64,000 nt of DNA, from contig JAYQLI010000035.1 in NCBI GenBank assembly GCA_038143065.1, positions 2,176,894 through 2,240,893 of the forward strand, written 5' to 3'. The notes beneath the pieces were generated by a model, which saw only the letters and a list, made by a program, of their open reading frames with translations, did no database searches and was not told the origin of the DNA. The stretch is from Rhodospirillales bacterium (GTDB lineage Bacteria > Pseudomonadota > Alphaproteobacteria > Bin95). The position numbers and the translations under genes are program-made. Shown piece after piece: positions 3,005 to 32,275 of this stretch (position 1 is its first letter; each line of letters opens with the position of its first letter).

Positions 3005-3772
3005 TCATTCCATCACAAGACCACCATCTACATAAATCGTTTGTCCAGTGATGAAAGCCGACCAGGGTGAAGCTAGAAAAAGTACTGGCCCCGCTATGTC
3101 TTCGGGCTTCGCTATACGTCGCAACGGGGTGGCAGAGATAATATCTTCTTTGATATTTTCTCGCACCCTTTCGCTCGCTTTAGTTGGGTAAACTAACCCA
3201 GGGGCAACAGTGTTGACGCGTATTCCAAGGGGGCCAAGTTCAGCTGCTAGTGTGCGCGTAAACCCTACTAGGGCTGCCTTTGCAGTTGCATAGTCGTGGT
3301 ATGGGACGACGGGTCTCGCAATCAGATCAGTGGCAATGTTAATGATGGATCCGTCGGCGCGGGTTAACATGTTTGGAACCGCTGCTTGCACCATATTATG
3401 AGCGGCCTGCACCGCACCCTCAAATTGGCTCTGGTAATCTTGCCAATCTAGGTCCCAATGAAGTTTCCTGCGCTCTGGGTCAAACTCATATGGTCGAAAA
3501 GCATTGTTAACTAGAACGTCGATCTTCCCAAAGGCTTCAATGGTCTCGGAGACTAAGTTTGTTGCACCGTGTTTATTTGTAACATCAGAGCAGATTGCTA
3601 ATGCTACTCCGCCGTTTGTCTCGCAGGCTGCAACAGTTGCTGCCGCGGTTTCGGCATTGGTTAAATAATTTACACCAACGTTGGCCCCTTCGCGCGCAAA
3701 AGCTTGAGCAATTGCCGCTCCTATCCCGCGACCAGCACCAGTGACGAGGACACTTTTTCCGCTAAAATTCAT
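3005..3772 (-). CDS. Short-chain dehydrogenase/reductase, OarX-like (FabG-like, thiamin-regulon associated)
   Basis: TGAGRGIG, NNA and YATAK catalytic motif. Segment NIATDLIARPVVPYHDYATAKAAL resembles the PRK08642/OarX subfamily (recalled, not searched). Confidence 0.85.
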   Translation of the reverse strand: MNFSGKSVLVTGAGRGIGAAIAQAFAREGANVGVNYLTNAETAAATVAACETNGGVALAICSDVTNKHGATNLVSETIEAFGKIDVLVNNAFRPYEFDPERRKLHWDLDWQDYQSQFEGAVQAAHNMVQAAVPNMLTRADGSIINIATDLIARPVVPYHDYATAKAALVGFTRTLAAELGPLGIRVNTVAPGLVYPTKASERVRENIKEDIISATPLRRIAKPEDIAGPVLFLASPWSAFITGQTIYVDGGLVME

Positions 3773-3777
3773 AGTTA

Positions 3778-4751
3778 TTATTTCGATATGAGATCGCTAA
3801 AGATAACCTTTTTCATCTCTAATTTAGATTTAATTAGTCCTAGTTCTAAGAAAGTGTCAGCGCCTTTTTGCAAGAGCTCGACGTCAAAATGCCCAAGCCC
3901 TTTAGCTTTAGTCGTTTGTGATTGCGCAGAGAGATTTCGGAGTTTGATGATTGCAAGGTTTACCTTTTCGTTTCGCCCGTTAATTGAGCGCGTTATAGCG
4001 ATTTTTGCCGCTTCTTCCGGCTCAGAAATCATCCACGCAGCACTTTTTTGATATGCTTTTAAAAATCGGCGGAGTAGGGGTTTTTGATCCCTGTAATGAT
4101 TCCGACGAACGACAAACATATCGCTTGGTACATTAAGGCTATCTCTGACCTCTATTACATCGACCTCACCAATGCCCTTTAGTTTAGCAACGTAAAGGCC
4201 TGTGTCGGTTGCTGCAGTGGCATCTACTTGGCCTTGCATTACTGGTGCAAAGTTAAGAAGACCAGTTACCTTAATTTTAACATCAGTCTCCTTAAGCCCC
4301 ACCTGATGCAGTAGGACCTGAAGATTTTGCCGAGTTCCGCTGGAAAGGCTGTATACCCCGATAGTCTTCCCTTTTAAGTCTGCAGGTGTCTTGATACCCC
4401 GACCAACCGGTGAAACCACGTTAAAAACATTTTGGGGGTAGATATTGTAAATGGCTACTAAGTCCTCGCCTTTATCGAGAGCTTGATAGAAAGAGGCTGG
4501 ATCTGTGAACGCTACATCCGCTGCTCCTGAGAGCATATTAGCAATTGCGGACCCCCACCTGCGCCTGGGACGTAGCCAAGGTCTATTCCTTCTGCTTTAA
4601 AAAACCCTTTGTCAGGTTCGGCAAGTATATTGGTGATTTCGCTAATTGGTTTACTCCAACCAGCAATACGTACCTTTTCAAGAGTTGCAGACATGGCTGC
4701 AGAGCTGGTGAAAGAGAACGCTAATATCGCTGCCAATAGAGAATGTTTCAT
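3778..4751 (-). CDS. ABC transporter substrate-binding protein, NMT1/THI5 (ThiY/SsuA-like) family; split by a frameshift near 4553
   Basis: Signal peptide MKHSLLAAILAF, GFFKAEGID and DLKGKTIG motifs. ORFs 4512-4751 and 3778-4536 join across a G-run. Confidence 0.88.
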
Positions 4752-5506
4752 TAGAAGGCGCCTTTCTGACGGCTTTGTAAAATCCGCCTCTCAATTACAA
4801 CTATAATTTGATAAAAAAAGAGGCCCATAAGGGTGATCAGGATAAAAAGAGCGAAAATTAAGGTTGTATCCATCATCCCTTGAGCAGCAATGATGCTAGC
4901 TCCTAGCCCCTTGCTGCCTGCAATAAATTCGCCAACCACTGCGCCTACCAAAGCGAGAACTATCGCAACCCGAATTCCAGCTAGAATTACGGGCATGCTG
5001 GTTGGAAGCTTCAGTCGCAATAAGGTCTGAAGTCTGGTCGCACCCAGCATGCGAAAGAGATCTCTTTTCTCCTGCGGAACATTTGATAAACCCGTTATTG
5101 TGTTTTCAAGCAGTGGAAAGAAACAGATTAGAGCTGTGATAATTACCGTAGAGGTCATCCCAAAGCCGAACCAGATTATAAAAATTGGTCCAAGAGCTAG
5201 TTTTGGCACTACCTGGCTGGCAAGCACGTAAGGCCAAAGGAGACGGCGAAGGCGCGGCATTTCAGCAAGTATCGCGCCAATAAGGAAACCGATAACGCAC
5301 CCAAGGACAAATCCCAGCAAAGTCTCAGCACCAGTTACCCAGAGATGTTGCCAAAGAGCACCAGATACAAGGCCATCCCAAAGTGTTTCTGCAACCGCTG
5401 AAGGCGCGGGAAGCACCAGAGGCGAAACTCCGGAGAGCGACACACCCAGCTCCCAGGCGATCAGTACTGCTACGAGCAGAGCAGAGCTGGATATATGCCT
5501 CAACAC
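4751..5506 (-). CDS. ABC transporter permease (SsuC/ThiX-like)
   Basis: LPAPSAV, several TM helices, EAA-like loop FRMLGATRLQ and VVGEFIAGSKGLG. Stop overlaps the next ATG (TAATG). Confidence 0.92.
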   Translation of the reverse strand: MLRHISSSALLVAVLIAWELGVSLSGVSPLVLPAPSAVAETLWDGLVSGALWQHLWVTGAETLLGFVLGCVIGFLIGAILAEMPRLRRLLWPYVLASQVVPKLALGPIFIIWFGFGMTSTVIITALICFFPLLENTITGLSNVPQEKRDLFRMLGATRLQTLLRLKLPTSMPVILAGIRVAIVLALVGAVVGEFIAGSKGLGASIIAAQGMMDTTLIFALFILITLMGLFFYQIIVVIERRILQSRQKGAF

Positions 5507-6266
5507 TGTCCCGCCCCTAATAGCATTGCCGACCTTACTTTCCGGCAGAGTTTGGAAAAGTGGGCTTCATATCGTAAGTCTGAGCCTCGTGGTCTAGGAA
5601 GGTCTATTTCGACTTCGTGTGTAATAAGCCCTCCTTCCATAACTAAGATTTTGTCTCCCAGGTATGCTGCTTCTCCAATATCGTGGGTGCCAAAAATTAC
5701 TGTCGTGGCGCTGGCTTCAACCAGATTGATTAATACGTCTTGGAGATCCTCACGGGTTAATGCATCAAGAGCAGCGAATGGTTCGTCCATCATTAGGACG
5801 GGGGGGGAGGTAACAAGAGATCGGGCAAGCGCTGCCCGGCTTTGTTGCCCGCCCGAAAGTTGTTCTGGATAACGTTGAGCAAGATGCTTGATGCCAGCGA
5901 GTTCCAGCAGTTCGAGCGCAAATTTTTCATCTGATTTATTTACAGAGCCTTTAAGACTTATCGGTAGTAAGACGTTATCAATTACTGTTAACCATTCTAG
6001 AAGGGATGGCGTTTGAAATACAAAACCAACATCTGAAGATGGTCCATCGACAGGGCTATCGCCAATTTTAATTGAGCCGGACGATGGTGCCAGCAGGCCG
6101 GCAGCCACTTTTAAACATGTAGTTTTCCCGCATCCACTTCTGCCAACCAAGCAATAAAACCCGCCTTTGGGAATGTTAAAGTCAATTCCCAAAAGACCTT
6201 TTTTGTTCCATTAGAAAAGGTATAGCTAACTTTTGATAGGGTAATTGAAGTTGAGTTAGTCTGCAT
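5500..6266 (-). CDS. ABC transporter ATP-binding protein (SsuB/ThiZ-like); frameshift in an A-run near 6200
   Basis: Walker A GRSGCGKTT, signature LSGGQ, Walker B MMDEPF. Upstream ATG at 6266 overlaps the end of the luxC-like gene. Confidence 0.9.
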
Positions 6267-7706
6267 AACTGGCCAAATCTTCAGCAGCAGTTTCAGCGCG
6301 AGCCTCTATTTCGGTTATTCTTACTAGGTCAAGCAAATTGAAACGCCCATCGTGGTGCCAGCCGGCTTCTGGTGAGGTCATATCGCCAAGAGCAGTAACC
6401 CGCGTCACCCCGACTTCACCTAACATGGAGGCGAGGTGGAAAAGACGTTCTGGTGTCGCAGAGATTGCCGCCGTTTGGATCAATGTTTTGTAGGGCTTGG
6501 ATAATATTGGCGTTTCTTCAAGGTCGTCGACGGCAACAATTCTGATAGTACGATTAAGACCACTCGGCCTCAGTGCACGGTCTTGCAGTTGAATTGAGAC
6601 AGTCCAATTACCGTTGCATGGTTCTACGACTTTACCACCCAGACGTGTCTCTTCTGCCATACGCCATTCTACTAAGCTGGATGCCTCGGCAAGAGAGAGG
6701 GGGCGCCGTGGGAATTTTCCTCATAACTTGCAAGTGATTGGGCTATGTAAGTTCCAAACGTTTCTGGTGAAATTGCACCACCTTTTTCGACGAAGAAAAC
6801 ATGCGGCGAGTAACATCCCTGCTGGTCATATCGTACAACGTCGTATGCAGCCTTTCTTGCAGTTGAAGAGCCGCGGGAGGGATCAAGGGCTTCTCTCCCA
6901 ATTAGGCCAAAGCTGATTTTATGGCCGTGAGCTAGAAAGCGCGTCGATGCTGGGGCTTGCGCTGCTAATGCTGCGATCGCCGTGTCTCCCCCGTATGCAA
7001 GTGCAACATCTGCTTCCCTAAATAGTCCGGCCTCAAGTTCTGTATTGCCGCCCTGCCACCAGACCAGTGCTATCGTCTTCGCGAGTTCAGGATCGGTTTC
7101 CGCTAAAACGTCATGAAACCACCCTGCAATAAAGGGCTCTGCTGTCGCAACCTTTCCAACGCTTGCGGCCTTCACTAACAGTCCAGCAATCAGTGTCCAA
7201 AGAGGCAGACCAGGAACATTTCCTGCCCAAACATGTGCTAAGAGATCAGGTCCAAAGGCACGACCAAAGCCTCCTTTAACAAGTGGCTGGAATTTGTCGA
7301 GAATACCTGGGTTTGGAAAGTCTTCGGTGATGAAACGCTGAAGTTGCGGTTTTCTGAACGTTTTGAGATAGCCAGTAAGGCCAATCCGCACCATTTCTTC
7401 GTCATAGCCAGTCACTATTGGCAGCAAATGCTCCATTTTTTTTCGAACTGGGTGGCTTCTGTCGAGAAGACGGGCCACTGTCTGGTCAATAGCAGTAAGA
7501 ACCCTATCGACAGGCCAAGTTTTGACACTGTTTCTCGCGTTGAGCCGAACTTTGGAGGCGATGGTTCTCAGATCTGCGGACTGCAAATTTGGCGTTAATG
7601 CAATTAAGCTCTTTTTACCATCTCCGCCATATTGCCTGGGCTCCCAATGAATCCTCTCTGGGTCAAGCCCATGAAGGCGGCCTACGTATTCAACGTCTGT
7701 TGTCAA
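6256..7706 (-). CDS. LuxC-like acyl-CoA/acyl-protein reductase; frameshift near 6714
   Basis: HVWAGNVPGLP, AYGGD and DQQGCYSP (catalytic Cys). Adding one A joins ORFs 6672-7706 and 6256-6660 (...YEEKFPRRPLSLAEASSLVEWRMAEE...). Confidence 0.88.
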
Positions 7707-8784
7707 TTTGCCGCCGCCGATATCAAAAATTCATCGACCGCCATTGAACACCCCTGAGCCTCGGCACCACTAACGCGCCCATGGAGCATGAAACCTTCAT
7801 CCACCTCAACCCCTGCATCTTCTGTCAATATAGTGGTTACTATATTGAAGTGGGCGAGGTCTGTGTGCGCAAGAACACCAGTCGTGCCCTTGGGGAGGGA
7901 TGAGCCTGTGAGAGGGTCAACGACACGTGTTTTTATCCAATGGGGGCCGGATTTAACAGACGGACAAACGGCATTACCATTGTCATAGAATTGGGTGCTG
8001 AGCTCCGTCATTCCATACATATTGATGCAGTTTGCGCGAGAGACCCCAAAAGCATTTTGAAGGGCATCATAAAATGTATCCAACTCTAACTCTCGGGATT
8101 GGCCTTTAAAACCTCCAGTATCGAGAAGGCGGCTGCCAGGCGGTAGTTGGAAGCGTCTTCCTGACGTTCCATTTCATCTAAAACATGGACGAAGCTGAAA
8201 CTGGCGCCCAGCAAACCGTATGATACACCATTTTCCTCTGCATCTTCCAAGCTGCGGAATAAGCGTTCGTACTCGATGCCATTACTCCCAACAAAGTGGG
8301 AGCTTCTCTCGGAGCCAAAGCATTGCTTGGCGAGTTCAAGATAATGGGCGAGTGAGGAATTCGGCATAGCCACAGGTGGCGGAAAAAGGATGCCAATTTT
8401 TAGTTTTTCTCTATTGCCCATGAAACGTTCGAGGAAATTATGGCGCATTGATGCATTATATACGGCCAAGGTTGGATGGTAGCTTTTCCCTCTTTTCCCA
8501 CCCTGTGTTGTGCCACTTGTCATAAAGGTGGCTTCTGCATTTGTTGGAGAGGAGCATGTAAGGTCAAGCGTCTTGAAGGCGCTAATGGGGACAGCGGGAA
8601 TATCTGCCCAGTGTCGCACCGTTTTGGGTGTTTTTCCTCTTGCTAAGCAAAATTTTTTGAACGGCAGATTATGTTCAAATTGATATGCAAAAATTGAAAG
8701 CGCCATCTGATCGAAATCGGCTTCGACAGCATTTTTATTTTCGATGAAGGTTAGGAGTTTGCTAACAACTTCAGCCTCATCCAT
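7703..8784 (-). CDS. LuxE-like acyl-protein synthetase (ANL superfamily); frameshift near 8160
   Basis: P-loop FMTSGTT, DTGGFKG (restored frame), NMYGMTEL, ILTEDAG and C-terminal GRVSGAEAQGCS with the acyl-accepting Cys. Confidence 0.88.
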
Positions 8785-8842
8785 CGCGCTATCTCCACTT
8801 AGAGGATGACACTAGGAGAGGGATAGGCCGCATCTTTAGAGT

Positions 8843-8968
8843 CCCATTCCCTCCGCCGGTATAATCCGGTTCAGGTTCAAAGGGTCATCGTGCTGACACT
8901 CAATTTTAGTCAAAGACCAATGGTGTCTATCGATATCTCAGCCCTTAAAGCAGGGCCCCCCTACGGTA
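8843..8968 (-). promoter_or_regulatory. TPP riboswitch (THI element)
   Basis: Minus strand reads CCGTAGGGGGGCCCTGCTTTAAGGGCTGAGA...ACCCTTTGAACCTGAACCGGATTATACCGGCGGAGGGAATGG, matching the TPP aptamer consensus. It lies about 60 nt upstream of the luxE-like ATG. Confidence 0.95.
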
Positions 8969-9111
8969 AGCTTCAGACGCTAAGTGGAAAACTGCTCTCG
9001 CGTCAAGATTTATATGATATTTTTGCCGGCCTTATTTTCGAGTTTATCGCAAAAGCAAAAAACACATTTTATGGTCGAAGAGTCTAATTGTGCTCTCCTA
9101 TCTCTGGCTTA

Positions 9112-9963
9112 TTAAGCAATTAAAACTCCTTTGGCGTCGTCTGACGCGATTGTACAACGCCAGTGAACACGACGCTCTTCGATGGGATAATCTGCTGTTG
9201 CAGAATGGAGTGTGCAACGATTGTCCCAGGTAACCAGATCACCAACTTCCCACTTGTGTCGATATTCTGCCCCCGGTGCGATTTGGTATTGTTCGAGTTC
9301 TTGAAAAAGATCCTTCGCCTCTTGATCAGATAATCCAACGATCCGCAGTAAATGTGTAGGATTGAAGTAAAGAGTTTTTCGTCCAGTCTCACTATGGGTG
9401 CGAGTTAAAGGATGTCGCACTGGCGGAAGGTTTCTGTCCTCTGGCTCAAGCAGTTCCGAACTTTTTCGAGATACACCTCCATAAACATAATCTGCTTTCA
9501 AGTTTTGAATTCTCGTCTTAAGGGTATTTGGCAAGGTGTTATAAGCCATAGCCATGTTGGCAAAGAGCGTGTCTCCACCTCTTGATGGGATCTCCAAGCC
9601 AAAAAGTTGTGTGGCTTTGCACCCCTTTGGATCCCAAGGACCATCCGTGTGCCATCCGTGTCCGCGCGCATATACCGGTCTATTTACAGTCCCATCAGCA
9701 TTGCGAGCATTTGTGCCCATGACCGTCAATTCGGGATGATTTGGATGACGAGATTTTTTTACTAAGTGTGGAAAAATTTTGCAAAGCGTCGGCCGTAGCT
9801 GAGAAAGTCTTCAATTGTAAGTTCTTGACCACGAATGCAGATCACACCAGCTTCCAGCCAGGCTTCATAGATCAGCTGAAATTCACTGTCGCTTATGCTT
9901 CGAATATCTATATCGGTGACGATTGCTCCACAGCCAGGACTGGCCTTTTCAATATGCACCACC
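9112..9963 (-). CDS. TauD/TfdA family Fe(II)/2-oxoglutarate dioxygenase; frameshift near 9780
   Basis: WHTD, GGDTLFANM and WDNRCTLH. The N-terminal part (GAIVTDIDI...GVICIRGQEL) is in ORF 9762-9998. Confidence 0.88.
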
Positions 9964-9969
9964 CATCTC

Positions 9970-10963
9970 CTAATGCAGCTCGCTTTTGATTTCACCAATC
10001 AGTTCAATTGCTTTGATTACATCCTTTTGGGCCAATCCAGGCCACTGAAGCCTAACTATTAGGTGATTGACCCCAAGTTTTTGGTTAAGCCATTGGATCC
10101 TATCTTTCACCATAGCCTTATCGCCAATAATGAAACGAGCTGCTTGGAAAGCATCAAAAGCCTCTTCGAAAGGTTGCCCTGCAACATTGGCGCTACCCCA
10201 CGATGCGTAAGCTGAATACTTGTAAAGCAAGGGTTTCTTGGCAATAGCAAAAGCCTGTTTAGCCGTAGTAGCGACAAAGCATTCCCGTATCATTGGTTTT
10301 TCAGTGGGAGGGCCAAGATTTTTGCTTCGCGTTCTTCATCATAAATCGCGTAATTGCGTTCCAACTGATCCCAATCAGCAGATGGGCTAACTAGCCAGGC
10401 ATCAGCTATTCGAGCAGCACGACGTATTGCGGGTTCTACGCTTGCTCCGATCCAAAGAGGCAGGAGGATCCATTTTTGGGTCTAACAGAGGCGCCAACGT
10501 CTGTTAGCTGAAAGAACTGGCCCTTATGAGAAATGCGGTCCTCTGACCAGAGGCGTCGAATGACGTTGATTGCTTCTGTCGTCCGAGCGGCACGCTTATT
10601 AAAATTGACTCCAAAGGCCTCGAATTCTGCCTTTCGATATCCTAGGCCGACGGCAAGAATATAACCACCTCTGCAGATCCAATCGAGTGTTGCTGACTCT
10701 TCGGCCACTTGAACAGGGTTAGTCATACCTAGGAGCCATATACCTGGGCCCATTCGCATATTCCCCGCTTCTGCAGCAAGTCGTGCTAACAGAATATTAG
10801 CCTGAAACATCTGAAGAGGCTGCGTCAGGTAGTGGTGTGGTGCTATGATAGAGGAAAAACCACATTCGCGAGCAGTGCGCACCTGAGCCAACAAATTTTC
10901 AGTTGCATCATCTAAAGGCGCGTCATCTGAAAATTGTGGATTTATGTAGAGGCCAAAGTCCAT
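9970..10963 (-). CDS. LLM-class (luciferase-like) flavin-dependent oxidoreductase; frameshifted
   Basis: MDFGLYI, PHHY, NPVQVAEESATLD and LAVGLGYRKAEFEAFG. The C-terminal part is in ORF 9970-10293. Confidence 0.85.
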
Positions 10964-10986
10964 TTGACATCTCTTTCTTGCAGAAA

Positions 10987-12021
10987 TCAGTTTATTTTGT
11001 AGGTGCGAACCGCTGTGTCGTGGAACAGCTGACGTTTTTCGTCGACGCTGTAATCCAGAGTGAGATGCTTGAAAGAATTCCAAAGAGTGTTGTAGCTGCA
11101 ACTGGTCATATCTACAGGAAAGTTTGACTCGAACATGCATCGACTGGTGCCGAAGTGTTCAATGGTATGTTCGTACCAACGTCGAGTTGCCTGCATTAAA
11201 GTTTTGCTAGTTGGTGGTGTGTTATGATACTCCCAGCCAAAGCCGTTGATATCCATATTGATACCACCAAGTTTTGCTAACACATTTTGACAGGTTGCTA
11301 GATCAGCTATTTCTTTCTGCCAGATTGGAAAAATGTCGTCAGCTTTACCCTCATAAGGTCCAATTCCAAGGGGGCCTCCAAAGTGATTTAGAATGATAGT
11401 CGTATCTGGAAATGCCCGTGCTAGTGCTGTCACTTCTTTAAGTTGTGTGTGATAGCACCAGGCTTCAAAAGTCATATTTCTGGGAGCTAATTCGGCAAAC
11501 CCTTCTCTGAATTTTGCATTTGAAAATCGGTCGGGCCCGGATGCATCTTTGGCGCTACGAATCGAATTGTCAGCATCCCACTGGCCCTGGCAGCGAATTC
11601 CACGAAATCGGCCTCCGCCTGCTTGAACATGGGCATCAAGAACTTCGCCAACAGCACTGCCAATATTTAAATTGGCTGAGCCAACGATGGCCGCTGCAAC
11701 CCTGCACTTCCCGTACAAGCCAGAAGCACTCATTGCTGCGATACCATTTACGAACTCTGTTTCTCCAACGCACTTCATGTGCTCTGGACCACTTGCCCTG
11801 TACATCGCTGAGCATTCAATGAACACAGTGCTGAGGATGTTATGACCAGAATTTAAGTCCGACAAAATTTCATCAAGAAGATATTTCGGCGCTACGCGGT
11901 CATGGCGAAACTCCCACAAGTGATGATGAGGATCACAGATCGGCAATTCCGGTTCCAAAGTATCTTCGATGACTTTGTCTAACCATGGTTTATTTTTTGA
12001 AGGAGTCATCATGCCATTCAT
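10987..12021 (-). CDS. Amidohydrolase_2 family metal-dependent hydrolase/lactonase
   Basis: DPHHHLW, LNHFGGP and MFESNFPVD motifs. Confidence 0.9.
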   Translation of the reverse strand: MNGMMTPSKNKPWLDKVIEDTLEPELPICDPHHHLWEFRHDRVAPKYLLDEILSDLNSGHNILSTVFIECSAMYRASGPEHMKCVGETEFVNGIAAMSASGLYGKCRVAAAIVGSANLNIGSAVGEVLDAHVQAGGGRFRGIRCQGQWDADNSIRSAKDASGPDRFSNAKFREGFAELAPRNMTFEAWCYHTQLKEVTALARAFPDTTIILNHFGGPLGIGPYEGKADDIFPIWQKEIADLATCQNVLAKLGGINMDINGFGWEYHNTPPTSKTLMQATRRWYEHTIEHFGTSRCMFESNFPVDMTSCSYNTLWNSFKHLTLDYSVDEKRQLFHDTAVRTYKIN

Positions 12022-12137
12022 TTTGAAAATTCCCGACGTTACAGCGTGCGCTCGTTAGATATTATCCTCAAGTTGTTTGATTGCATTTAATTGCCGCTAT
12101 CCAATAGGCTGTGGTGATAAATTGGGAGAAAATCCTC

Positions 12138-12936
12138 ATGGAAACTACGACTTCAATTCGTGCTGAAGTTCGCTATGTGAATGCTGAATGGAAAGGTCGA
12201 AAAGAAATTCCTCGAATAGGGTCAAGGAAACACGACGGGCTAACACATCCCGTAAGTCGATAGATATTTACGATGCTCGTCCAGGCCTTGCGAATGGCGA
12301 GATCACGCTGGACGGTTCAGGTTTTACGCTCGCAAAGTTTGTGCACGCCGTAGAAGATTTTCGGGATATTGAGGCCACAGCCCGCCGGTACTACCCAGCT
12401 GTTGAAAAGTTGGTGGCCAATCTTTCTGGAGCAAAGGAGGTATTTGTCCGGGATCATTTGGTCCGAACAGAGATTCCGATTGATTTCAATGATGGATACG
12501 CACGATTTGTTCATTGCGACTATAACATGAAGCGATTGAGGGAGATGTCGGAGTCTTTGTTGGAGACTAGGGTATTGAGCCGAATAAAGACTGGACCTAC
12601 GCATGGTTTAACACCTGGCAGCCTTTTGACAACCCAGCCGTCAACAATCCGCTGGCTTTTATAGATTGGCAGTCATTGCCAGAAGATGACGTAATTGACT
12701 ACTTTTATACAGGTCGAAATAGAGAGAGTTTTGTAGCCGCCCCCGTTTATAATCCAGATCACGTTTGGCGCTATGTGCCGTCAATGTCGCCAGATGAAAT
12801 TCTGATTTTTAAACAGATGGACGGAAGGCGTAATGCATCTGTTTATTGCCCTCATACCTCTTTTGATAATCCTGAAGCTCCGGACGATGCTCCTCCGCGT
12901 CGAAGTGTTGAGACACGGTTGCTGGCAGTGTTTTAG
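12138..12936 (+). CDS. CmcJ/NvfI (AsaB-like) family oxidoreductase; frameshifted
   Basis: LDGSGFTL, VHCDY, PHTSF and RRSVETR. ATG at 12138 follows a GGGAG RBS; ORF pieces 12188-12664 and 12676-12936. Confidence 0.78.
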
Positions 12937-13024
12937 AGAGATTAAAGAGAGACATTGCTAAATAAAAAATCTTTAACTTAGGTAAAAATTAGGCGTGGTT
13001 CAGTATGCAGAACTGCCGACTCAT

Positions 13025-14142
13025 TTAACGAATTTGTGAAGAATTCGCAGCATCAATCGCTTCAGGTAGAGCCCTTTCAAATGCGGCCAAGTTTTCTGGG
13101 AGACCTGCACTGACTCGAATACAGCGATCTTGAGGCGCTGCAAACGGCATCCGGACAAAAATACCTCTGGCGACAAGTTCATTCAAAATGGCACGCGCAA
13201 AAGCGCCGTCTCTACCGCAGTCTATGGCGACAAAGTTGGCTGCACTGTCCAGGGGTTGGAGATTATTTGCAGCGGCGATGCGCCCAATCTCAGAGCGGGA
13301 TGTTTCAACTAGTTTTCTTACATTGAGTAGCCAGTTTTGATCCCGCACCGAGGCAAGAGCGCCAGCCTGGGCGATACTGTTCACACCAAAGTGGTTACGT
13401 ACTTTATTGAATGCTAAAGCCAGCCCTGCCTCGGCAATTCCATAGCCTACTCTCGCACCAGCCACACCAAAGGCTTTAGAAAATGTGCGGAACCTAATAA
13501 CCCGCGGGTTGTCTACATCGATGGGAGGCGCCGTTAACTCTGGAGCAAACTCAATGTAGGCTTCATCAAGGCAAAGGATTGAGCCTTCTGGCACTGCGTC
13601 AATCATTGTTTGAACGGAATTTGCGTTATGCGAACTTCCCATTGGGTTATCTGGATTAGCTAGGTAAATTAGTGCTGCAGAGTTTGCCATAGATGCAGCA
13701 AGTAAGGCTTCGAGATCTTCTTTGTCGTCTTTGTAGGGCACTAATTCTAGTCGCCCCCAAAGCCTGCTACGTGATAATTAAAGGTCGGATATGCCCCTAG
13801 CGAAGTTACTACTGGGGTCTGCTCAGAGACCGTCAACCTAACTAGATTTCCCAAAAGAGCATCAATACCCTCGCCAACTACGATGTTATCGGGCCGTACT
13901 CCATGCAACTTGGCCAACTCTTGCTTCAGGTCATAATTCTCAGGGTCGCAATAACGCCAGACTTCTGAAGCAGCTAGCCGCATGGCTTCCAAAGCTTTAG
14001 GTGATGGGCCAAATACGCTTTCATTAGCTCCTATACGAGCTTGAAATGGGTTGCCTATTTGCCGTTCCTGAGTTTCAGGTCCAACGAACGGCACGGTTGA
14101 GGGCAATGATGCAGTCAGTGATGTGAATGGATAGTTTTGCAT
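13025..14142 (-). CDS. PLP-dependent aminotransferase, HisC-like; frameshift near 13755
   Basis: RIGANES, LANPDNPMG, LDEAY and RTFSKAFGVAGARVGY. Confidence 0.88.
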
Positions 14143-14225
14143 CTATGGCCTTAGATTGGCTGAAATTTAGACTGGTTTATCGCAGCCGATAGAGCCGCTA
14201 AACTTTAACCCTAGCTATATCAAAA

Positions 14226-14561
14226 TCATGGCTCACCTGGAGCTGGATCAAAATGTTCTTCTAGTTTGTTTTTAACGTCCACCCAGTCATCCGCATCGGA
14301 GGGACTGTCTCCTTTTCGGGTGATGTTAGGCCAAGACTCTGAGTAGTCTCTGTTAAACTCTACCCATTTCTCTGCCCCTACTTCCGTATCAGGCTTGATA
14401 GCTTCAATCGGACATTCTGGCTCGCACACACCACAGTCAATACATTCGTCGGGATGGATCACAAGCATATTTGCGCCGACGTAGAAGCAGTCTACAGGGC
14501 ATACTTCCACGCAATCCATGTATTTGCACTTAATGCAGTTATCTGTGACGACGTAGGTCAT
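14226..14561 (-). CDS. fdxA: 7Fe ferredoxin
   Basis: [27 protein letters not shown]...[12 protein letters not shown]. Confidence 0.96.
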
Positions 14562-14718
14562 TGGCTGCTAGCTTCCTAAAGTATGAGAATTAACTTTACA
14601 GGCGGTATATCGCGACCAGAACTTGCAATCAATCAAAGTTGCGTCCGAAAAGTTTGGCCATTCAGAAGCAATAAATTATCCTCACGGCGACTCACAAGTC
14701 CATGGAGACAAAATCCCG

Positions 14719-24001: not shown

Positions 24002-24077
24002 GGGCCTGTAGTTCAGTGGTCAGAACGCGCCGCTCATAACGGCGTTGTCGCAGGTTCGAATCCTGCCGGGCCCACCA
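24002..24077 (+). tRNA. tRNA with CAT anticodon, most likely tRNA-Ile2 (lysidine)
   Basis: 76-nt cloverleaf: acceptor GGGCCTG/CGGGCCC, anticodon arm CGCCG-CTCATAA-CGGCG, GTTCGAATC, encoded CCA. Acceptor stem resembles Ile2, not fMet. Confidence 0.9.
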
Positions 24078-32178: not shown

Positions 32179-32275
32179 GGAGGGGAATGTCGTCCGGTGG
32201 CGGCCCCGGTCTTCAAAACCGGTGAGGGGGCGTTAGGCGTTTCCTGGCGGGTTCGACTCCCACTCTCCTCCGCCA
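32179..32275 (+). tRNA. selC: tRNA-Sec (UCA)
   Basis: 97 nt. 8-bp acceptor GGAGGGGA/TCTCCTCC, anticodon arm CCGGT-CTTCAAA-ACCGG, long variable arm, GGTTCGACTCC and GCCA end. Confidence 0.95.

Follow-up and report, generated by a model that had tools for sequence, protein, structure and literature searches.

A thiamine pyrophosphate (TPP) riboswitch and the six co-oriented genes behind it were analysed in a stretch of 64,000 nucleotides from a Rhodospirillales bacterium (contig JAYQLI010000035.1 of assembly GCA_038143065.1), referred to below at its full length as the window. On the minus strand the order is TPP riboswitch, LuxE-like protein, LuxC-like protein, ATP-binding cassette (ABC) ATPase, permease, NMT1/ThiY-like substrate-binding protein (SBP) and short-chain dehydrogenase/reductase (SDR). 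The cassette is conserved and is absent from the literature searched, and its SDR ties it to the problem of OarX, which has been open since 2002. On balance, we favour the reading that the genes form one unit, on at low TPP, which would import a thiamine-related carboxylic acid and reduce it to an alcohol that re-enters thiamine synthesis; the broader statement, that the cassette serves carboxylate-reducing thiamine salvage of some kind, is held with somewhat greater confidence and is probably correct. The mechanism proposed is drawn from homology and genomic context.

The TPP riboswitch aptamer (THI element) was located at 8831..8972 (−) and matched the full Rfam model RF00059 (positions 1-105) at 65 bits (gathering score 54.3, E 1.7e-10). 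It is followed on the same strand by genes for a LuxE-like acyl-protein synthetase of the adenylating type with a C-terminal Cys (7703..8784), a LuxC-like acyl-thioester reductase of the aldehyde dehydrogenase superfamily (6256..7706), a ThiZ-like ABC transporter ATPase (5500..6266; ABC_tran, 101 bits), a ThiX-like ABC permease (4751..5506; Pfam BPD_transp_1, 103.9 bits), a periplasmic NMT1/THI5-like (ThiY-type) binding protein (3778..4751) and an OarX-like SDR, which is intact and is the last gene of the unit (3005..3772; adh_short_C2, 197.9 bits). The Rfam and Pfam/NCBIfam assignments agree with the first-pass annotation, which had placed a canonical TPP riboswitch before six co-oriented genes, and every overlapping or abutting junction described there was present: TTGA at 7706-7703 holds both the stop of luxE and the start of luxC, an ATG at 6266 opens the ATPase gene 11 nt before luxC ends, the permease stop and binding-protein start share TAATG at 4751, and the gap between binding protein and SDR is 5 nt. 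All six identities hold, but the assembly reads the six genes as ten open reading frames (ORFs). LuxE is split into ORFs 8784-8086 (232 aa) and 8083-7703 (126 aa), LuxC into 7706-6672 (344 aa) and 6660-6256 (134 aa) and the binding protein into 4751-4512 (79 aa) and 4536-3778 (252 aa), and the ATPase is frameshifted at its 5' end.

Between the end of the aptamer and the ATG of luxE lie 46 nt. No terminator-like hairpin was found between the aptamer and the luxE start, and in the minimum free energy fold of the leader the start-codon region was paired with an upstream CAUCCUC; repression by the TPP-bound aptamer would, on this folding model, probably be translational. A weak sigma-70-like sequence (TCGAAA-16-TATCAT, 9/12 consensus positions) was noted at 9014..9041 (−), approximately 40 nt 5' of the aptamer; as 11 such sites were counted in the region against 8.5 expected from shuffles, it is listed as a candidate only.

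Linkage of the riboswitch to the luxE-luxC pair was assessed in several samples. Of the candidates scored, 2009 LuxC-like relatives (479-483 aa) passed E<=1e-10, and a scan of one genome per species gave 520 luxC-like loci, of which the best 80 were analysed. An Rfam aptamer was present approximately 1.2 kb 5' of the luxC match in 7/7 diverse loci (Pantoea, Azospirillum, Bosea, Roseovarius, Polaromonas and two metagenome-assembled genomes (MAGs)), and because the riboswitch stands at the same place in all seven, chance association was excluded. A covariance model, R1, was built from six of these seven aptamers; it scored the window aptamer at 111.7 bits and detected an aptamer at 74/80 genome loci. 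Upstream DNA was missing at two of the other six, which leaves 74/78 testable loci with an aptamer. For an independent sample, 400 Pseudomonadota genomes were searched with the best NCBIfam model of the SDR (NF006393), giving eight further full operons, all with an aptamer by R1, of which only 3/8 reach the Rfam gathering score. Starting from a distant homologue, a scan of metagenomes yielded 80 more loci, and in the main clade 53 of the 55 testable loci (at least 250 nt of DNA 5' of luxE) carried the aptamer. Among 400 genomes of another phylum, sampled around genome G678, one further genome held a luxE-luxC pair (41-44% identical) on a 3-kb contig, preceded by a partial aptamer of 45 bits, below the gathering score and cut by the contig start. 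The first-pass annotation had named a general lack of TPP riboswitches before luxE-luxC homologues as grounds for refutation; the counts from the genome, independent and metagenome samples contradict such a lack. The cassette is rare (2/250 evenly drawn alphaproteobacterial genomes) and occurs in cultivable bacteria, namely Pantoea dispersa, Azospirillum, Bosea, Polaromonas and Roseovarius litoreus.

The architecture of the 80 genome loci was determined by tblastn with the six proteins of L001, the closest public relative of the window (a Rhodospirillales MAG, 96.3% identical over 15.5 kb). The order luxE-luxC-ATPase-permease-SBP-SDR was found at 54/80 loci and luxE-luxC-SDR without the importer at 16/80, the Pantoea loci included; luxE was not detectable at 2/80 (one of them cut at its 5' end), and 8/80 ran into a contig end within 3 kb 3' of luxC. 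An SDR was present at all 72 loci with enough downstream DNA. Riboswitch, luxE, luxC and SDR thus make up the invariant core, into which the importer genes are optionally inserted. An 883-aa open frame in L126 had suggested a LuxE-LuxC fusion; tblastn placed LuxE and LuxC in different frames, and the open frame was judged to be a high-GC artefact. The Polaromonas genes 3' of the SDR (TsaD, a binding protein, an aminotransferase and S15) were set aside as housekeeping genes that do not belong to the unit.

The only solved relative of both the LuxE-like and the LuxC-like protein is the Photobacterium phosphoreum LuxC-LuxE complex (PDB 7xc6). In phmmer searches the L001 LuxE-like protein (360 aa) matched 7xc6 LuxE at E 1.6e-17, and the LuxC-like protein matched 7xc6 LuxC at E 2.3e-15. 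The LuxC fragments of the window scored 192 and 68.1 bits against Pfam PF05893 (cut-off 21). By sequence, both proteins are placed as members of the wider LuxE and LuxC families and not as lux enzymes. According to PMC9157457, adenylation and thioesterification by LuxE are assigned to the pair Lys238/Arg355, the acylated Cys364 sits in a short motif at the C-terminus that replaces the usual C-terminal domain of ANL enzymes, and the catalytic Cys of the LuxC protein (PpLuxC) is Cys296. The window holds YDQQGC in the LuxC-like protein and TSGTT and a C-terminal GCS in the LuxE-like protein, and the motifs FMTSGTT, DTGGFKG, YGMTE, R337 and G345-C346-S347 were invariant in 77/77 LuxE-like sequences. 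K227, within DTGGFKG, aligns with Lys238 of LuxE and was likewise invariant in all 77; R337 and C346 were equated with Arg355 and Cys364 from their motifs and an identical nine-residue spacing, not from an alignment. The LuxE-like protein ends 14 residues past Cys346. In the LuxC-like protein, AGNVP and the Cys of YDQQGC were invariant in 15/15 aligned sequences, and this Cys aligns with that of YDQQAC in 7xc6_A. The adenylation loop and C-terminal Cys of the LuxE-like protein and the Cys of DQQGC, which had been picked out from the letters alone, are conserved in the family as well as in the window. Of the LuxC cleft residues named in PMC9157457, the hydrophobic Met114 and Ser118 align with Lys115 (invariant) and Arg118 (conserved) of the cassette protein, in a stretch of the alignment with low posterior probabilities that offers a weak hint at most.

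The pair thus resembles the LuxC-LuxE enzymes of luminous bacteria in its adjacent, overlapping genes, in the Lys/Arg pair and C-terminal G-C motif of LuxE and in the conserved YDQQxC Cys and AGNVP of LuxC. It differs from them in that the relationship is remote, in the TPP-riboswitch control, in the two cleft positions just mentioned (low-confidence alignment) and in having neither luxD nor luxAB in the unit. The absence of luxD and luxAB had been noted before and is correct for the unit, but a luciferase-like monooxygenase gene lies approximately 1.5 kb 5' of the riboswitch, outside its control.

The SDR of the window scored 278.5 bits against NCBIfam NF006393 (PRK08642), under the cut-off of 292, and the next SDR of the source genome scored 139.4. 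At E<=1e-65, Corynebacterium glutamicum was the sole match to NF006393 among 14 control genomes, a match at the level of the model. Higher-scoring NF006393 members without luxEC were found in five Pseudomonadota genomes (L097-L101), and the luxEC-linked SDRs are 41-46% identical to them; at L101 the member stands in the order riboswitch-thiM-thiE-thiD-SDR, the classic oarX setting. A quick maximum-likelihood tree was computed from 48 rows, comprising 33 luxEC-linked SDRs (every third of the 72 SDRs, eight of the independent sample and the window SDR), 5 NF006393 members and 10 source-genome paralogues. The luxEC-linked SDRs formed one clade (SH-aLRT 97) whose sister group was the NF006393 clade (99), and together these were split from the paralogues (99). 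On this tree the cassette SDR is placed in a probable sister clade of OarX and is not nested within the NF006393 family.

OarX, a FabG-like SDR behind TPP riboswitches, was flagged in 2002 by Rodionov et al., as cited in PMC11223231. It occurs in 87 genomes, clustered with thiOSGF, tenI, thiM, thiD, thiE, thiV, ykoCDE and occasionally an acyl-CoA synthetase (PMC11223231). Oliveira-Filho, Rodionov and Hanson proposed in 2024 that the substrate of OarX is a carboxyl derivative of thiamine or of one of its moieties, reduced in activated form (PMC11223231). The cassette SDR is like OarX in being a FabG-like SDR behind a TPP riboswitch and near thiamine genes, with NF006393 as its best model, and the hypothesis put forward here for the cassette is the published one, in which a carboxyl group is first activated and then reduced. 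Unlike OarX, the cassette SDRs form a clade of their own and occur in every case with LuxE-like and LuxC-like genes, with no FmnO in the unit. The first-pass annotation had proposed an uncharacterised acid-reduction route with the SDR as third enzyme. The LuxE/LuxC cassette was indeed not found in the literature searched, but the idea of acid to aldehyde to alcohol had been published for OarX in 2024; the SDR is kept at all 72 loci, but it is not anonymous, being the probable sister of OarX. The literature searched held nothing joining a TPP riboswitch or thiamine with LuxE, LuxC, an acyl-protein synthetase or an acyl-CoA reductase in this sense, and oarX together with thiamin returned PMC11223231 only (main text; its supplementary gene table could list LuxE/LuxC neighbours), in whose main text 'Lux' and 'acyl-protein' occur 0 times. 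The cassette would supply the enzymes for activation and for the first reduction.

The larger fragment of the binding protein scored 120.7 bits against Pfam PF09084 (NMT1/THI5; cut-off 20.5), and the 79-aa fragment scored 19.3, below it. A hydrophobic, signal-like N-terminal segment was recognized by eye from the sequence. Its PDB matches were 3qsl (6e-14), 4nmy (9e-12), ThiY 3ix1 (2e-7), SsuA 2x26 and THI5. The nearest NCBIfam models of the permease were SaoP, SsuC and TauC, all below cut-off. The cassette importer is like the ThiXYZ importer (ThiY of Bacillus halodurans, 3ix1) in having the same three components behind a TPP riboswitch with an SBP of the NMT1/THI5 family, and its ATPase and permease share 35-37% identity with their counterparts in a plain ThiZXY-type operon linked to a riboswitch (37% for the ATPase, compared with that of the riboswitch-ATPase-permease-NMT1 operon in genome G273). 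It is unlike ThiXYZ in that its SBP has closer PDB matches in 3qsl and 4nmy and is distant from the canonical ThiY type, and in that it sits between the reductases and is dispensable in some operons.

From these assignments the following sequence of steps is proposed. With TPP bound, the aptamer would block expression, probably at translation. When TPP is low, the ThiXYZ-type ABC importer would take up the acid, and the LuxE-like enzyme, judging by its homology and invariant catalytic residues, would adenylate it with ATP and load it as a thioester on the C-terminal Cys. The acyl group would then pass to the Cys of the LuxC-like enzyme, whose homology predicts reduction with NADPH to the aldehyde, and the OarX-like SDR would reduce the aldehyde to the alcohol. 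For the substrate we tentatively propose, at close to an even chance, 4-amino-2-methylpyrimidine-5-carboxylic acid (PCA), with hydroxymethylpyrimidine (HMP) as the product; ThiD would then phosphorylate the HMP.

Thiamine genes were searched in 50 of the 80 carrier genomes, an author-chosen set that favours long contigs and isolates and includes many MAGs, and cassette neighbours were surveyed at 168 loci. ThiC was found in 29/50 carriers, ThiG in 40/50, ThiM in 17/50 (absent from 33/50), ThiD in 49/50 (the miss being a 2.6-Mb MAG) and TPK in 2/50. Eleven carriers had ThiG and no ThiC, and none of these had ThiM; hydroxyethylthiazole (HET) as a product would therefore be useless to them, and HMP would be exactly what is lacking. 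Two of the eleven, G259 (source of the Roseovarius litoreus locus L015) and G260, have TPP riboswitches only before the thiazole-synthesis operon and the cassette. In the neighbour survey, thiD lay between riboswitch and luxE at 5/168 loci (L105, L178, L193, L198, L202; riboswitch-thiD-luxE-luxC-ABC-SDR) and an NCS1 permease (cytosine/purine/thiamine-type, CytX-like) at two (L187, L188); at four others (L128-L130, L135) the SDR was followed by an NCS1 permease with its own riboswitch. No thiM was found in the cassette's own unit at any of the 168 loci. The co-occurrence with thiamine genes that had been suggested as a check was thus seen within some cassette units, in the form of thiD, cytX-like and thiGH genes. 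Of the three candidate acids named in the first-pass annotation (thiamine acetic acid, 4-methylthiazole-5-acetic acid and PCA), salvage of some acid is kept, but the context favours the pyrimidine acid over the thiazole and thiamine acids, because thiD or a CytX-like permease is present in some units and ThiM is absent from 33/50 carriers.

Further genes were recorded at three of the surveyed loci. The metagenome contig of L139 carries, at 4278-14700, riboswitch-thiM-thiE-thiD followed by riboswitch-thiG-thiH-luxE-luxC-ATPase-permease-SBP-SDR. In L128 and L129, of a divergent clade, MoeA-type molybdopterin genes follow the riboswitch-controlled CytX-like permease, and L128 also has an aldehyde dehydrogenase.

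Several observations weigh against the reduction of PCA to HMP, or against the wider proposal. Neither Rfam, nor R1 at E<=1, nor a search for core motifs up to 700 nt from luxE found an aptamer at L004, L011, L028 and L041, which have the upstream DNA, and the metagenome loci L171 and L205 had enough DNA and no riboswitch. The window LuxE fragments scored 22.1 and 20.2 bits, below the Pfam PF04443 cut-off of 24.9, and the NCBIfam equivalog models were far from reached (LuxE NF052244, 29.5 and 24.9 against 550; LuxC NF052251, 64.2 against 750). The importer is missing from 16/72 operons, and the cassette SBP is only 22% identical to the canonical riboswitch-linked ThiY-type SBP in the same genome. 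The make-up of the 50-genome set belongs here as well. An argument from enrichment of ThiC loss was dropped, since ThiC was present in 29/50 carriers compared with 78/251 controls (evenly drawn alphaproteobacterial genomes, one unpublished, G207, included). The source genome and 8/50 carriers are without ThiC, ThiG and ThiM, and in these HMP alone could therefore not give thiamine. One lineage has the order riboswitch-thiG-thiH-luxE (L139, L140), and OarX proper clusters mainly with thiazole genes, that is thiOSGF, tenI and thiM (PMC11223231). C. glutamicum ATCC 14067, which is thiC-minus and has oarX-fmnO, did not grow on PCA (PMC11223231). A thiG mutant of this strain was not rescued by 4-methylthiazole-5-acetic acid (MTA), thiamine acetic acid, oxo-HET or oxo-thiamine (PMC11223231). 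Because PMC11223231 names no LuxE or LuxC, the activating steps may be missing in the C. glutamicum test strain.

Part of this evidence bears on the same chemistry with another acid, either MTA reduced to HET or thiamine acetic acid reduced to thiamine, so that the thiazole or the whole vitamin would be salvaged. The thiazole neighbours of OarX proper, together with the thiamine transporters thiV and ykoCDE near it (PMC11223231), the riboswitch-thiM-thiE-thiD-SDR order of L101, the thiG-thiH genes directly before luxE and the genomes that need more than HMP all speak for it. Against these stand the needs of the products: HET is useless without ThiM, which most of the carriers searched do not have, and thiamine requires TPK, present in two of them, or a thiamine kinase, for which no search was made. 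In-unit thiM was found at 0/168 loci, compared with thiD at five and the CytX-like NCS1 permease at two; the SBP belongs to the ThiY/NMT1 family; and the C. glutamicum thiG mutant was not rescued by such acids, with no LuxE or LuxC named for the strain. Salvage of a thiazole or thiamine acid is regarded as unlikely.

The substrate could instead be a thiamine-related carboxylate that has not been catalogued, or the aldehyde could be the useful product with the SDR acting on another group. PMC11223231 closes by proposing derivatives of the five compounds tested there, the cassette SBP is distant from canonical ThiY (22% identity), the operons without importer suggest an acid formed internally, and the hydrophobic LuxC cleft residues align with Lys115 and Arg118, albeit at low confidence. 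No positive pointer to any particular other compound was obtained, however, and the thiD and CytX-like partners fit HMP itself, so that this alternative is given a low probability, slightly lower than that of the thiazole and thiamine acids.

Lastly, the cassette might serve no thiamine salvage at all, and either make the aldehyde or alcohol of a TPP-dependent enzyme as a TPP-sparing bypass or be an ordinary fatty-acid-to-fatty-alcohol reductase that stands behind the switch by chance. B12 riboswitches control B12-independent isozymes, which gives the bypass an analogy. As for the ordinary reductase, fatty acid reduction is the best-known activity of LuxC and LuxE (PMC9157457). Both forms are at odds with the ThiY-type importer, with the thiD, cytX-like and thiGH genes inside some units, with the probable sister relationship of the SDR to OarX and with the lack of luxD, and a true lux function is opposed by the equivalog scores (29.5/550 and 64.2/750); they are considered very improbable.

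The reading that is retained, somewhat more tentatively than the identity of the substrate, is that the LuxE-like, LuxC-like and OarX-like proteins could make up a dedicated three-step reductase, driven by ATP and NADPH, which returns PCA to HMP. PCA, otherwise a dead-end oxidation product, would then be a vitamer not recognised before, which soil and marine bacteria take up by ThiXYZ-like or CytX-like carriers; OarX, an orphan for two decades, would be the aldehyde reductase of the route, and the lux fatty-acid reductase would be one specialised branch of a wider family of small-acid reductases. Most aquatic bacteria are unable to make vitamin B1 and subsist on its fragments; in one coastal study up to 78% of taxa were B1 auxotrophs (PMC10881298). 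The fragments listed as usable are HMP, aminomethylpyrimidine (AmMP), formylaminomethylpyrimidine (FAMP), HET and cHET, with no oxidised acids listed. If true, the proposal would extend the B1 cycle by a salvage route and a vitamer, both new, and would give the LuxC/LuxE pair a non-luminous role of ancestral type. The pathway is directly testable, as there are cultivable carriers and the three candidate acids are commercially available.

Four of the six cassette genes are interrupted in the window by 1-2-base indels in homopolymers. In L001 all cassette genes are intact (360/483/254/251/324/255 aa). The window and L001 differed by 26 indel events in 17.7 kb, of which 18 were single-base gaps on the window side and lay mostly within homopolymers; the events were scattered through the operon, the genes that flank it and intergenic DNA. 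Within the operon coding sequences they comprised 1-nt gaps at 4556 (binding protein), 6718 (luxC) and 8161 (luxE), and two extra T near 6203, at the ATPase 5' end. Single-base homopolymer deletions relative to L001 recur approximately every 700-1000 bases (for example 4556, 6718, 8161, 9782, 10319, 10464, 12227, 12570 and 13753). In a genome scan with one SDR model, many other SDR genes of the source genome were likewise cut into two adjacent pieces. As the indels are assembly-wide, in homopolymers and in unrelated genes, the frameshifts are likeliest to be sequencing or assembly errors and not decay of the operon; we regard this as very probable, and the genes were treated as functional in the organism. 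That the four frameshifts are real and the operon is a decaying pseudogene cluster in the source genome would agree with the breakage of 4/6 genes and with the loss of ThiC, ThiG, ThiM and TenA from the same genome. It is improbable given the even spread of the 1-2-nt homopolymer indels over 17.7 kb with flanks and intergenic DNA included, the similar splitting of unrelated SDR genes genome-wide, the position of the window on a 2.86-Mb contig, which suggests a long-read assembly, the intact genes of L001, and the fact that no stop codons or larger deletions were seen.

The source genome (4.63 Mb, 97.6% complete) has ThiD, ThiE and ThiL. The search of this genome found no ThiC, ThiM, TenA or TPK, and the ThiG matches were partial, at 30 bits only. 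It has two TPP riboswitches, that of the cassette and one before a Liv-type ABC importer (C35:2015783-2015886, outside the window). An importer is present at each of these riboswitch-controlled loci, in keeping with a lifestyle based on imported thiamine precursors.

A Liv/HAAT-type unit, with a Peripla_BP_6 binding protein (approximately 375 aa), permeases and ATPases behind a TPP riboswitch, was also found in convergent orientation approximately 8 kb 3' of the cassette in five loci. The second riboswitch lies at 19455-19542 in L003, 19461-19571 in L007, 19387-19497 in L012, 19101-19211 in L167 and 19111-19221 in L196; in L167 and L196 the riboswitch and an ATPase match were all that was seen of the unit. 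To our knowledge, no thiamine-related substrate is known for a Liv/HAAT-type transporter. Another unusual member of the TPP regulon was recorded at L110 (G297:C88:1914-2046, −), where a TPP riboswitch of 73.9 bits lies approximately 200 nt before a gene for a glutathione S-transferase-like protein (240 aa).

Directly upstream of the riboswitch on the minus strand of the window are a TauD-family dioxygenase gene (split, 9112-9998) and the luciferase-like flavin monooxygenase gene (split, 10436-12021), with the same arrangement in L001. They were considered as FmnO-like partners and rejected, being outside the switch-controlled unit; the L001-type luciferase-like monooxygenase (LLM) was present at 2/80 loci and TauD at 3/80. 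A second LLM family is divergent from the riboswitch in four loci (L014, L018, L020, L024), too sparse for a claim. On the other side of the cassette, 52 nt after the SDR, a DUF3047 protein with a signal-like N-terminus is encoded at 2281-2952 (−); it is present in L001 and is no conserved part of the cassette. Elsewhere in the window, an ordinary tRNA was found at 24002-24074 (+) and a selenocysteine tRNA at 32179-32271 (+; RF01852, 71.5 bits), and the source organism probably synthesizes selenoproteins.

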